Origin: Escherichia coli | GTDB taxonomy: Bacteria; Pseudomonadota; Gammaproteobacteria; Enterobacterales; Enterobacteriaceae | Strand: one strand, 5' to 3' | Assembly: GCF_016026235.1 (NCBI RefSeq) | Contig: NZ_CP065613.1 | Length of the DNA stretch: 64,000 nt | In this document: positions 15,001 through 18,000 of the stretch, piece by piece | Position numbering within the stretch: position 1 is the first letter of the stretch | Layout of the letters: every line of letters begins with the position of its first letter | Program-made: the position numbers

Positions 15001-18000
15001 AATGGCAAACTGGATGTTGCGAATAGCGTCGAGTTTTTCGAATCGCTCGCCAGGTTCCAGCCCTTCCGCTAAAGCGACCAGCAGATTAGTGATACCAGCA
15101 GAAGCCGAGAGGACAACTAAACGTACGTTGGCATCAGAAAGCACAATATCAGCGCTGCGGTTCATGGCGTCAAAATCAGCTACGCTGGTACCGCCAAATT
15201 TGGAGACAACAATTTCAGACATGACTACCTCGTGTCAGGGGATCCATTTTCAGCCTTGGCACAAGGGAAGAGCGGAAGACGGGTGGGCGCAGAGCGATAC
15301 TTCGCTACTATTTTCACCCAGAAGTGCTCCACCACTTGCGAAACGCCCGACTGCGAACGCTTCTGGTGACAACCCAGGGGATTCAGCCCCTGTAGCCGAT
15401 GATGAACGTGGCCAGCCGTTCAATCACCTCGGCGATGCACCCCCTCAGGTGTTATCACAGGACTGGCTCCTCCAACACCGTTACTTGGGCAACGCGCCTC
15501 TTCTGGCCTGCGCTAGCGCAGGTAGTACATTTATAAATAAAGGGTGAGCGGGGCGGTTGTCAACGACGGGGTCATGCGGATTTTTCATCCACTCCTGGCG
15601 GTCAGTAGTTCAGCTAATAAATGCTTCACTGCGCTAAGGGTTTACACTCAACATTACGCTAACGGCACTAAAACCATCACATTTTTCTGTGACTGGCGCT
15701 ACAATCTTCCAAAGTCACAATTCTCAAAATCAGAAGAGTATTGCTAATGAAAAACATCAATCCAACGCAGACCGCTGCCTGGCAGGCACTACAGAAACAC
15801 TTCGATGAAATGAAAGACGTTACGATCGCCGATCTTTTTGCTAAAGACGGCGATCGTTTTTCTAAGTTCTCCGCAACCTTCGACGATCAGATGCTGGTGG
15901 ATTACTCCAAAAACCGCATCACTGAAGAGACGCTGGCGAAATTACAAGATCTGGCGAAAGAGTGCGATCTGGCGGGCGCGATTAAGTCGATGTTCTCTGG
16001 CGAGAAGATCAACCGCACTGAAAACCGCGCTGTGCTGCACGTAGCGCTGCGTAACCGTAGCAATACCCCGATTTTGGTTGATGGCAAAGACGTAATGCCG
16101 GAAGTCAACGCGGTGCTGGAGAAGATGAAAACCTTCTCGGAAGCGATTATCTCCGGTGAGTGGAAGGGTTATACCGGCAAAGCAATCACTGACGTAGTGA
16201 ACATCGGGATCGGCGGTTCTGACCTCGGCCCGTACATGGTGACCGAAGCACTGCGTCCGTACAAAAATCACCTGAACATGCACTTTGTTTCTAACGTCGA
16301 TGGGACTCACATCGCTGAAGTGCTGAAAAAAGTAAACCCGGAAACCACGCTGTTCCTGGTAGCATCTAAAACCTTCACCACTCAGGAAACCATGACCAAC
16401 GCCCATAGCGCGCGTGACTGGTTCCTGAAAGCGGCAGGTGATGAAAAACACGTTGCGAAACACTTTGCGGCGCTCTCAACCAATGCCAAAACCGTTGGCG
16501 AGTTTGGTATTGATACTGCCAACATGTTCGAGTTCTGGGACTGGGTCGGCGGCCGTTACTCTTTGTGGTCAGCGATTGGCCTGTCGATTGTTCTCTCCAT
16601 CGGCTTTGATAACTTCGTTGAACTGCTTTCTGGCGCACACGCAATGGACAAGCATTTCTCCACCACGCCTGCCGAGAAAAACCTGCCTGTCCTGCTGGCG
16701 CTGATTGGCATCTGGTACAACAATTTCTTTGGTGCGGAAACTGAAGCGATTCTGCCGTATGACCAGTATATGCACCGTTTCGCGGCGTACTTCCAGCAGG
16801 GCAATATGGAGTCCAACGGTAAGTATGTTGACCGTAACGGTAACGTTGTGGATTACCAGACTGGCCCGATTATCTGGGGTGAACCAGGCACTAACGGTCA
16901 GCACGCGTTCTACCAGCTGATCCACCAGGGAACCAAAATGGTACCGTGCGATTTCATCGCCCCGGCTATCACCCATAACCCGCTCTCTGATCATCACCAG
17001 AAACTGCTGTCTAACTTCTTTGCTCAGACCGAAGCGCTGGCGTTTGGTAAATCCCGCGAAGTGGTTGAACAGGAATATCGCGATCAGGGTAAAGATCCAG
17101 CAACGCTTGACTACGTGGTGCCGTTCAAAGTGTTCGAAGGTAACCGCCCGACCAACTCTATCCTGCTGCGCGAAATCACTCCGTTCAGCCTGGGTGCGTT
17201 GATTGCGCTGTATGAGCACAAAATCTTTACTCAGGGCGTGATCCTGAACATCTTCACCTTCGACCAGTGGGGCGTGGAGCTGGGTAAACAGCTGGCGAAC
17301 CGTATTCTGCCAGAGCTGAAAGATGATAAAGAAATCAGCAGCCACGATAGCTCGACCAATGGTCTGATTAACCGCTATAAAGCGTGGCGCGGTTAATCAT
17401 CGTTCATGCCTGATGCCGCTATGTAGGCCGGATAAGGCGTTCACGCCGCATCCGGCAACCGATGCCTGATGCGACGCGGTCGCGTCTTATCAGGCCTACA
17501 GGTCGATGCCGATATGTACATCGTATTCGGCAATTAAAACATAGCACGATTGATTAAATAACCTTAATAACAATGCCGACGTTATGTCGGCATTTTTTTA
17601 TCAGATAAATCCCCTTGTCTGTGATTTAACGGAAATCATACCGTGAGGTTAATCCTAAAATAGATTTTTAATCGTTGTTTATTTCGGAAAATACGCAGAT
17701 TAATTACTTTTGTTTTTATTTTAATTTTATGATTTTTATTGTTATTTAAATATAAGTTGAAACTTATATTTGATATTCATTCCAATTATCCTAAAACGCC
17801 ATCGCTAATTCCCCGCGCCGTAATTCGCATGCTTTAGTTGTGTATACTCGATCCCGCCCGAAATGTTTTTGGGTAAATCTCCATTCATTCAATGAAGGGA
17901 AATTGTTATGAAAAAAGTTCTGTATGGCATTTTTGCCATATCTGCGCTTGCGGCGACTTCTGCGTGGGCTGCACCTGTACAGGTGGGCGAAGCGGCAGGG

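Follow-up and report, generated by a model that had tools for sequence, protein, structure and literature searches.

The window analyzed here, a 64,000-nucleotide stretch of Escherichia coli contig NZ_CP065613.1, carries pgi, yjbE, yjbF, yjbG and yjbH in that order, as indicated by how near-identical E. coli records are annotated in RefSeq and by Pfam matches within the operon (PF11106, PF11102, GfcC N/C and PF06082) (Table 1). The region of interest lies within the 511-bp pgi–yjbE intergenic region (17397-17907). YjbE itself has 80 residues; sequence inspection revealed a signal-peptide-like N-terminus and an Ala/Ser/Gly-rich body, consistent with its description in a first-pass annotation of this DNA as a low-complexity, secreted peptide with a poly-Thr tail.

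That annotation also saw in the region protein-bound DNA that regulates an exopolysaccharide operon expressed only under certain conditions, a view that published work bears out. Passages in two papers citing Ferrieres et al. 2007 state that RcsA-RcsB activates yjbEFGH (PMC5461412, PMC5651002). Under envelope stress imposed by colicin M, yjbE showed a log2 fold change of 5.74 and the operon rose ~50-fold, yjbE being induced together with rcsA and wca; osmotic induction and negative control by RpoS have also been reported (PMC3599342). An appendix entry, a second-hand source, credits the locus with a pair of RcsAB sites and a single IHF site (PMC6238139). Occupancy in vivo is indicated by ParB ChIP-seq, in which the locus shows a transcription-independent dip that is abolished by deletion of the locus and persists with rifampicin and in stationary phase. 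An AT-rich promoter region with Rcs and IHF sites and conditional expression is already known from databases, and in this respect the first-pass annotation adds nothing new.

Table 1 Features of the pgi–yjbE region and the yjbEFGH operon. Coordinates are those of the window; distances with a minus sign are relative to the predicted transcription start of yjbE; a dot marks features with no strand assigned.
Feature	Sequence or composition	Coordinates	Strand	Evidence
REP/BIME palindromic elements, outside the yjbE control region		17397-17500	.	Inverted repeats I1, I4, I5
Rfam STnc430 (RF02053) match, predicted enterobacterial sRNA		17562-17711	−	77.7 bits, gathering score 47, full length
pgi intrinsic terminator	10-bp stem, then T7	17572-17600	+	Terminator scan
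Box 0, candidate RcsAB/RcsB box, ~−248	TCAGATAAATCCCC	17601-17614	+	1 mismatch to TNRGAN4TCYNA
Box 1, RcsAB box, centre ~−205	TGAGGTTAATCCTAAAA	17644-17660	+	Conservation and consensus
Box 2, inverted TCYKAAA half-site with TNRGA left half, centre ~−165	TTTCGGAAAATACGCA	17682-17697	+	Conservation
AT-rich core, holds the IHF site	GC 0.14	17697-17796	.	Composition scan
Low-complexity stretch	TTATTT x7	17704-17747	.	Tandem Repeats Finder: period 6, 72% matches, score 42
Promoter-like element, predicted start near 17711	−35 ATAACA, 16-nt spacer, −10 TAAAAT	17718-17745	−	Promoter scan
IHF consensus core, centre ~−127	Plus TAATTTTATGATT, minus AATCATAAAATTA	17722-17734	−	Consensus and conservation
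Box 3, proximal RcsB-type half-site, 14-mer centre ~−69	TTCCAATTATCCTAAAAC	17780-17797	+	Conservation
Core promoter block	TTGTGTATACTCG, −10 TATACT at 17843-17848	17837-17851	+	Conservation
5′-terminal mRNA stem-loop	GCCCGAAA-UGU-UUUUGGGU	17856-17874	+	MFE structure (predicted)
Hairpin with Shine-Dalgarno sequence	CCAUUCAU-UCA-AUGAAGGG	17881-17899	+	MFE structure (predicted)
yjbE		17908-18150	+	Annotation/Pfam
yjbF		18264-18902	+	Annotation/Pfam
yjbG		18899-19636	+	Annotation/Pfam
yjbH		19636-21732	+	Annotation/Pfam

Downstream of pgi, the REP/BIME segment includes an Rfam naRNA4 match (RF02564; 17426-17496, 79.5 bits) and is variable within E. coli, with a 13-bp indel relative to K-12 and a query coverage of at least 80% in only 3597 of 5425 genomes. 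Beyond ~17420, adding 4,217,998 converts a window position into MG1655 (NC_000913.3) numbering. The hairpin of the pgi terminator is kept across genera with compensatory changes (GCCGAC, GCCGGC and GCCGAT variants) and is followed by a T-rich run on the minus strand as well.

The extreme AT-richness noted at first pass was confirmed. GC content is 0.224 over 17640-17800, and the core is the lowest-GC segment of the 64-kb window at both 100 bp and 150 bp (mean of the whole window 0.507, sd 0.08); among its 100-bp segments, just 0.1% have a GC content of 0.20 or less. In all 80 related loci compared, 79 of them from other species, the lowest GC content over 100 bp was 0.10-0.28, and in nearly all of them this segment began 190-290 bp before the ATG. 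Across orthologues, the core keeps its composition, not its sequence: at 17739-17779 the mean GC is 0.21 in 78 taxa, and the pairwise identity is 0.40 compared with 0.36 expected from composition. Polymorphism within E. coli is concentrated at 17676-17765, and the boxes described below are fixed. Small ORFs in the spacer were set aside, as the ORF scan found only short, unconserved frames that would be broken by 11-nt indels. Nor is the region a horizontally acquired island, given that the family as a whole retains both the AT trough and the order of pgi and yjbE.

Phased A/T tracts, intrinsic curvature and short direct repeats had also been attributed to this DNA, and these attributions were not confirmed. 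The many T-tracts of the core, and the fact that AT-rich upstream regions are often curved, might suggest a static bend acting in place of, or in support of, bending by proteins. However, the T-tract centres (17709.5, 17715, 17720.5, 17726.5 and 17735) are 5.5-8.5 bp apart, their vector sum at 10.5 bp is 0.08-0.33, and AA/TT power at periods of 10-11 bp in the AT region was not above that of composition-matched shuffles (p = 0.07-0.5). A wedge model, which returned 51 degrees for a phased-A6 control, gave a curvature peak of ~23 degrees in the core, whereas the window as a whole averages 13 and has its 99th percentile at 33; within the interval annotated at first pass, the highest value, 26.6 degrees at 17901, is at the 96th percentile. 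Given also that the core conserves composition only, we consider a static bend very improbable. The strings quoted as repeats, TTTTATTTT and ATTTTAATTTT, occur once each in the region; the source of the impression is the degenerate TTATTT x7 array, whose score falls below the Tandem Repeats Finder default threshold of 50. A repeat search of the region returned only two copies of ATCCTAAAA, one at 17652 and one at 17788, together with a palindrome of 11 nt (17748-17771). No further copy of ATCCTAAAA exists in the 64 kb; it is the sole meaningful repeat, an RcsB half-site.

Alignment of 78 Enterobacteriaceae orthologues (column counts below are out of 78) revealed four Rcs-type boxes, an IHF consensus in the AT core, an invariant −10 block and two hairpins in the 5′ UTR. 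The conserved columns of the boxes fall exactly at the consensus positions of the RcsAB box, a 14-bp pseudo-palindrome TaAGaatatTCctA (PMC4325325), and of the RcsB box, TN(G/A)GAN4TC(T/C)NA (PMC7913699). In box 1, all 78 orthologues carry the T, A, G, T, C and AAA unchanged, and the E. coli sequence matches TaAGaatatTCctA at 10 of 14 positions, including every capital position. A position weight matrix (PWM) built from the box 1 orthologues identified TAAGGATTATCCGAAAA, 264 bp upstream of K-12 rcsA, with a score of 21.0 (next-best 0.4); its top match upstream of wza was TAAAGAAACTCCTAAAA, carrying TCCTAAAA. We take these two matches to be the published RcsAB boxes. Box 2, with TT, G and A in 78/78, has a perfect left half and an imperfect right half and is the third-best match to the same PWM in the 64 kb (score 10.1, minus strand); a match at 41764 lies inside the dinF coding sequence and is irrelevant. 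Box 3 (T77, C77, A76 and A78) contains the second copy of ATCCTAAAA. Its left half is CYAWT, not TNRGA, and only its right half is Rcs-like; its location is not a textbook class I position. Box 0 has the family consensus T-M-R-G-A-T-W-A-T-T-C-Y-N-N (TAAGATAATTCCGC in Salmonella), with columns T64, R74, G67, A68, T68, C71 and Y67 and a mean pairwise identity of 0.59 compared with 0.26 expected from composition. The degenerate RcsB consensus is not enriched window-wide (39 matches, 60 expected), so the case for the boxes is one of conservation, not of motif counts; which of the boxes are bound is our inference.

The IHF consensus is well established, and the minus strand of the AT core agrees with its core WATCAANNNNTTR at 12 of 13 positions in E. 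coli; most genera have a full match (TTGAT). The columns of this element are T69, A75, A64 ... T78, G77, A59, T56 and T68 of 78, such that within the YAANNNNTTGATW core TG is kept in 77-78 and TAA in 64-75 of the orthologues, with the spacing preserved. Together with the one IHF site given for the locus in the PMC6238139 appendix entry, this conservation supports the earlier labeling of the DNA as IHF-type.

In the core promoter, the invariant TATACT matches five of the six −10 positions and is separated by 17 bp from a weak −35 element, GTAATT (2/6), which explains why a generic promoter scan made no call here. This promoter is likely to be weak alone because its −10 is good and its −35 poor; with candidate activator sites upstream, it has the pattern of an activator-dependent sigma-70 promoter. 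Transcription would start at ~17855/17856. The Cappable-seq start-site supplement contained no match for the locus coordinates, and a literature search returned no mention of a yjbE promoter fusion. All 78 orthologues share an identical run of 11 bases (17838-17848), and the next two positions (17849-17850) are conserved in 74-78 of them. Invariance over 13-15 nt exceeds the need of a −10 hexamer, suggesting that something else may also read this block as DNA or RNA; inspection of the block by eye for ops (GGCGGTAG), sigma-54, sigma-E and sigma-28 patterns revealed none. Of the eight pairs in the predicted 5′-terminal stem-loop of the mRNA, seven are kept in at least 70 of the 78 orthologues, and the pair 17859:17871 is U:G in 31, U:A in 28 and C:G in 17. 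Its many G:U pairs make this stem-loop specific to the plus strand. The sequence of the Shine-Dalgarno hairpin is nearly invariant.

The distances between these elements take discrete values. In a set of phylogenetically related sequences, whose counts are not independent, box 1 and box 2 are 43-44 bp apart in 71 sequences and 33 bp in 7; box 2 and the IHF site, 44-45 bp in 64 and 33-34 bp in 13; the IHF site and box 3, 56-60 bp in 70 and 46-47 bp in 6; and box 3 and the −10, 51-54 bp in 69 and 41-42 bp in 8. The distance from box 1 to the −10 forms three clusters, at 175-177, 186-190 and 198-201. The transcribed interval from the −10 to the ATG varies continuously from 61 to 67. Indels in five different spacers all amount to one helical turn (~11 bp), or to two in one doubtful case, and at least seven separate ~11-bp events can be distinguished by our own count, which considered lineages but used no tree. 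Spacer changes restricted to ~11-bp steps point to a protein–DNA complex that depends on the face of the helix.

Based on these findings, we propose, with a probability of roughly 0.7, that the 300 bp upstream of yjbE form a composite, activator-dependent sigma-70 control region made up of Rcs boxes and an IHF-bent AT spacer. RcsB with its partner RcsA would bind the far-upstream boxes 1 and 2, and possibly box 0, with box 3 as a proximal RcsB half-site. The AT core (~−75 to −157), located between the distal and proximal boxes, would serve as a deformable spacer, which IHF, and possibly other nucleoid proteins, would bend to bring the distal Rcs complexes onto the promoter. All sites would need compatible helix faces, which would explain why only one-turn indels are tolerated. 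The resulting mRNA would begin with the conserved stem-loop, followed by the hairpin containing the ribosome-binding site. The looping step is suggested by the order and phasing of the sites. The right half-site of RcsB has been described as TCCTAAAAT, and the yjbE upstream region scores as a salt-induced candidate. At box 3 (TCYAWTTRTCYKAAAAC), RcsB could act with a further partner, as proposed for salt-induced y-genes (10.1101/2025.05.13.653802). As a more elaborate reading, less likely than not, we put forward a phase-locked, enhancer-like nucleoprotein assembly, with four Rcs-type sites and the IHF bend on fixed faces of the helix relative to the sigma-70 promoter, together with a possible divergent transcript and a box 3 partner.

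A different account of the AT core, in line with the silenced operon of the first-pass annotation, is that an H-NS filament nucleated on it keeps yjbEFGH off and that Rcs mainly counter-silences. H-NS prefers DNA of this kind, and no other 100 bp of the window have a GC content as low as the 0.14 of the core, within an AT tract of ~100-150 bp. The occupancy in vivo, which persists under rifampicin and in stationary-phase cells, where RcsA is presumably scarce, would fit such a filament, as would an operon that is nearly silent without stress and strongly inducible (PMC3599342), and silencing is compatible with the proposed Rcs/IHF control. However, phased tracts and marked curvature are absent by the wedge model and the periodicity test, the H-NS nucleation motif TCGATAAATT has no match within two mismatches in 17397-17907, and the searchable literature yielded no H-NS binding or hns-mutant data on yjbE. 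The AT stretch is, moreover, short, belongs to an ancestral core-genome locus and has a specific, conserved IHF core within it. An effect of hns on yjbE would also be confounded, because H-NS silences rcsA itself. We therefore regard H-NS silencing as less likely than not.

The conserved blocks between the pgi terminator and the AT core might instead encode the sRNA STnc430, with leftward transcription starting at ~17711, at a promoter within the core, and ending at the bidirectional pgi terminator; the core would then be a divergent promoter region. The full-length RF02053 match, well above its gathering score, was found in 14 of 20 genera, and the start predicted for the minus-strand promoter-like element coincides exactly with the 5′ end of the match. 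A canonical-like −10 hexamer occurs at the anchored position in 42/78 orthologues (TAAAAT in 22, TATAAT in 11), with T at −7 in 58% compared with a background of 29%, and the minus-strand hairpin is followed by a T-rich run in most genera. However, the element overlaps the IHF TTR, which explains the conserved TTA of the −10 equally well. STnc430 itself was only predicted computationally (class V); in the source study it had 0 cDNA reads in either library and was not probed. The variable pairs of the central stem are kept in 52/78 and 21/78 orthologues with a negative association, being broken as often as kept; RNAalifold returned 0 pairs and no consensus structure for the segment; and shuffled sequences fold as well as the inter-box segment does (mean z −0.33). 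In E. coli, 11 nt of the STnc430 body have been lost, and indels of one helical turn are a DNA-level, not an RNA-level, property. The sRNA reading was rejected on these grounds as improbable, and the match probably reflects DNA-level conservation rather than a structured RNA.

The proposed control region can be compared with several known systems. RcsAB-box promoters (E. coli wza/cps and rcsA; Erwinia ams) share with yjbE the 14-bp box and the extended TCYKAAAA right half, and the rcsA and wza sites were recovered by the box 1 PWM. Boxes far upstream are also common to both, as is RcsA-dependent expression (PMC5461412, PMC5651002). Unlike these promoters, yjbE has up to four boxes in mixed orientation, an IHF site and ~80 bp of AT-rich spacer that separate its distal from its proximal sites, and a proximal site that is only a half-site; JUMPStart/ops was not seen by eye in its leader. 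The order of distal activator sites, IHF consensus and promoter, and the preserved helical phasing between elements, are reminiscent of IHF-assisted activation at sigma-54 and some sigma-70 promoters; compared with sigma-54 promoters, yjbE has the sigma-70-type TATACT and lacks GG-N10-GC, and its looping is a proposal. H-NS-silenced promoters (proV, bgl, rcsA and horizontally acquired islands) resemble yjbE in extreme local AT content and stress-inducible expression, but the yjbE tract is short and lies in an ancestral core locus, and neither a nucleation motif nor curvature was found in it. With Rfam RF02053, a family from an unvalidated prediction, the yjbE upstream region shares homologous sequence, whereas its conservation pattern fits protein-binding sites, not RNA pairing.

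The AT-rich stretch is probably the bendable spacer of a catalogued, stress-activated Rcs/IHF control region before yjbEFGH. The first-pass interpretation stands in so far as the DNA is regulatory, conditional, IHF-type and protein-occupied; it is not supported on curvature from phased tracts or on H-NS silencing, and it overlooked the most important functional elements, the Rcs boxes.

Apart from colanic acid synthesis, few operons depend on RcsA; yjbEFGH is among them, and its expression is often used to report envelope stress. The present analysis adds a family-wide map of its sites and the observation that the spacers change by whole helical turns only. This pattern, obtained at little cost from natural variation, is evidence that activation involves a looped or wrapped complex, and it yields a prediction of how 5-bp insertions should differ from 11-bp ones. 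The Rfam family STnc430 should be treated with caution, as it probably models conserved protein-binding DNA, not RNA. If the more elaborate, phase-locked assembly is correct, a minus-strand promoter inside the IHF site could additionally drive divergent transcription across the distal Rcs boxes, and occupancy by RcsAB and IHF would switch the region between two outputs.

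Published work establishes both Rcs dependence and protein occupancy of the region upstream of yjbE. The yjbEFGH operon has been described as a second-exopolysaccharide operon activated by the RcsA–RcsB heterodimer (Ferrieres et al. 2007, as cited in PMC5461412 and PMC5651002). Colicin M raises its expression ~50-fold, along with rcsA and wca, and osmotic induction and negative RpoS control have been reported (PMC3599342). The locus is listed with two RcsAB sites and one IHF site (PMC6238139). Moreover, Debaugny et al. found a dip at this locus in ParB spreading from nearby parS, which survived both rifampicin treatment and stationary phase and was lost upon deletion of the locus, direct evidence of protein occupancy here in uninduced K-12. 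In a Reg-Seq preprint, TCCTAAAAT is given as the RcsB right half-site, and yjbE is placed among salt-induced promoters scoring for the motif of an unidentified activator. The searchable literature yielded no start-site or H-NS data for yjbE. On RyhB overexpression yjbE mRNA shifted ~2-fold (log2 -1.01, p = 0.026) with no change in ribosome occupancy (log2 0.14), and yjbE is listed there as a novel, unverified candidate (PMC4666370).

The window is ~99% identical to K-12 MG1655 near 4.2336 Mb, with the gene order lysC (minus strand), pgi, yjbE, yjbF, yjbG, yjbH, yjbT (minus strand) and psiE. Pfam assigns YjbE to PF11106, YjbF to PF11102 and YjbH to PF06082, and YjbG is GfcC-type. The region under study lies within the 511-bp pgi–yjbE intergenic region (17397-17907), in which the RefSeq annotation has no feature. 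REP/BIME elements 3' of pgi (17397-17500) match Rfam naRNA4 (RF02564, 79.5 bits); this stretch is polymorphic in E. coli, with 13 bp missing in K-12 and most of it absent from about one-third of complete genomes. A lysine riboswitch lies 5' of lysC on the minus strand (~15314-15510) and is annotated in a near-identical record (L001); Rfam Lysine matches also occur in several related loci.

We compared 80 loci encoding YjbF relatives, one genome per species across Enterobacteriaceae, in most of which pgi lies directly 5' of yjbE. Alignments of 20 genera and of 78 non-identical sequences revealed conserved blocks alternating with unconserved spacers. The candidate Rcs-type sites, boxes 0-3, fit both the published RcsB box TN(G/A)GAN4TC(T/C)NA (PMC7913699) and the published RcsAB box TaAGaatatTCctA (PMC4325325). 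As an independent test, other K-12 promoters were scanned with a PWM built from box-1 orthologues only, which retrieved a single site upstream of rcsA (TAAGGATTATCCGAAAA, score 21.0 vs 0.4 for the next best) and TAAAGAAACTCCTAAAA as the best match upstream of wza. Within E. coli the boxes are fixed, and polymorphism clusters at 17676-17765.

Control elements between pgi and yjbE, in 5' to 3' order. Distances were taken between invariant anchor bases; n, number of sequences.
Element	Coordinates	Sequence and conservation	Distance to next anchored element
pgi terminator	17572-17600		
Box 0	17601-17614	family consensus T-M-R-G-A-T-W-A-T-T-C-Y	49-53 or 29-31 bp
Box 1	17644-17660	TGAGGTTAATCCTAAAA; T, A, G, T, C and AAA invariant in 78/78	43-44 bp (n = 71); 33 bp (n = 7; Escherichia and, separately, a Kluyvera-like group)
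Box 2	17682-17697	inverted TCYKAAA half-site copy; left half TNRGA perfect	44-45 bp (n = 64); 33-34 bp (n = 13; several lineages)
IHF core	17722-17734	YAANNNNTTGATW; TG in 77-78/78	56-60 bp (n = 70); 46-47 bp (n = 6)
Box 3	17780-17797	TCYAWTTRTCYKAAAAC	51-54 bp (n = 69); 41-42 bp (n = 8; Citrobacter freundii complex)
-10 block	17837-17851	holds TTGTGTATACTCG; -10 hexamer TATACT at 17843-17848; -35 poor	
5'UTR hairpin 1	17856-17874		
5'UTR hairpin 2	17881-17899	19 nt	

In seven loci (L016, L045, L046, L053, L054, L061 and L064), pgi and yjbE are ~2 kb apart, whereas the other loci have ~0.35-0.5 kb between the two genes. These seven nonetheless keep boxes 1-3, the IHF core and the -10 block, indicating that the control region travels with yjbE and not with pgi. 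One of them, L054 (CACSKA010000007.1), is titled 'Chryseobacterium sp. 18061' and has an Enterobacteriaceae-type pgi–yjbEFGH locus with a YjbF 76% identical to that of E. coli; mislabelling or contamination of this assembly is likely.

Spacers between the blocks are of only two kinds, either modal in length give or take 1-2 bp or ~11 bp shorter, and changes of 3-9 bp were found in none of the intervals measured. The two box 0 to box 1 classes lie two turns apart; the short one comes from loci whose upstream region is rearranged and is less secure. As an internal control, the transcribed interval from the -10 to the ATG varies continuously (61-67 bp). By our lineage count, made without a tree, at least seven separate one-helical-turn events have occurred. 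Such quantisation by helical turn fits sites that need constant relative helix faces, and points to looping, wrapping or a similar protein-mediated arrangement at the level of DNA.

Extreme AT-richness, claimed in the first-pass annotation, was borne out: the lowest 100-bp and 150-bp GC values of the 64 kb (mean 0.51, sd 0.08) fall at 17697-17796 (0.14) and 17646-17795 (0.19). All 80 loci have a 100-bp GC minimum of 0.10-0.28, nearly always starting 190-290 bp 5' of the ATG. Within this AT core, the segment 17739-17779 has a mean GC of 0.21 in all taxa and a pairwise identity of 0.40, vs 0.36 from composition alone (0.59-0.96 for the boxes); its composition is therefore constrained and its sequence is not. 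A perfect palindrome with 11-nt arms, AAATATAAGTT-GA-AACTTATATTT (17748-17771), occurs here in certain E. coli lineages only; it is polymorphic in O157 and other strains and is not conserved in other genera. The same annotation had described YjbE as a low-complexity secreted peptide with a poly-Thr tail, and a signal peptide, low-complexity body and poly-Thr tail are indeed present. Its phased A/T tracts and short direct repeats did not hold: five T-tracts (centres 17709.5-17735) are spaced 5.5-8.5 bp, AA/TT periodicity at 10-11 bp is not above composition-matched shuffles, and both repeat strings quoted are single-copy. The sole array found by TRF is a degenerate TTATTT x7 under the usual threshold, and the one non-trivial repeat, ATCCTAAAA at 17652 and 17788, has no further copy in the window.

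The -10 block contains 11 consecutive bases (TTGTGTATACT, with the palindrome GTATAC) identical in 78/78 sequences, the next three being nearly so, an invariance that exceeds the needs of a -10 hexamer. Elsewhere, the yjbJ promoter region (42470-42520, 5' of the ATG at 42581) carries AATAATCCTAAG beside a TACACT -10; the former is apparently the activator site, similar to an RcsB half-site, that the Reg-Seq preprint gives for yjbJ. Downstream of TATACT, hairpin 1 keeps 7 of its 8 pairs in 70-78 of the 78 sequences, with one pair alternating between C:G, U:A and U:G. G:U pairs are numerous, so the hairpin is specific to plus-strand RNA, and its position suggests a start site just 5', at ~17855/17856. 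Hairpin 2 includes the yjbE Shine-Dalgarno (TCCATTCATTCAATGAAGGG) and is essentially invariant in the 78 Enterobacteriaceae, beyond ribosome-binding-site needs; it may thus have an extra role as a translational control element or a protein or sRNA binding site.

A weak divergent minus-strand transcript may also arise from the region. Rfam reports a match to the predicted sRNA STnc430 (RF02053) on the minus strand from 17711 to 17562 (77.7 bits), with matches in 14 of 20 other genera, and a minus-strand promoter-like site (ATAACA, 16 nt, TAAAAT), its -10-like hexamer canonical in 42/78 orthologues, predicts a start at exactly 17711. However, the conserved TTA of this -10 doubles as the IHF TTR, and STnc430 originated as a computational candidate only (class V, no cDNA reads, not probed; Sittka et al. 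2008 Table S). The central stem of the model is just box 2 pairing with box 1, and its two variable pairs, which are negatively associated, form in no more than 52/78 and 21/78 sequences. RNAalifold predicts no structure, the inter-box segment folds no better than shuffles, and 11 nt of the body have been lost in E. coli. The match therefore mostly reflects conserved protein-binding DNA. H-NS may well bind the AT core and add silencing, although the tests run gave this no specific support. H-NS controls rcsA, so an hns phenotype would be confounded.

We favour, with a probability of roughly 0.7, a weak promoter that needs RcsB~P/RcsA at distal boxes and a proximal half-site, with the AT core as an IHF-bent deformable spacer; the anatomy, conservation and phasing constraint on which this model builds are directly observed. 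The yjbE core promoter would be weak alone. RcsB~P/RcsA would occupy the distal boxes, presumably those mapped here, and the proximal half-site; IHF would bend the AT core, and the bend would let the distal Rcs complexes reach the promoter, putatively by looping. A conditionally expressed exopolysaccharide operon behind IHF-type, protein-occupied DNA, as the first-pass annotation had interpreted it, stands; intrinsic curvature finds no support, as a dinucleotide wedge model (phased-A6 control, 51 degrees) gave only average-to-moderate values for the AT core. The region is a previously catalogued Rcs/IHF-controlled promoter region, to which our analysis adds, incrementally, a map of the sites across the family, the finding that its spacers are quantised by helical turn, and a reinterpretation of STnc430.
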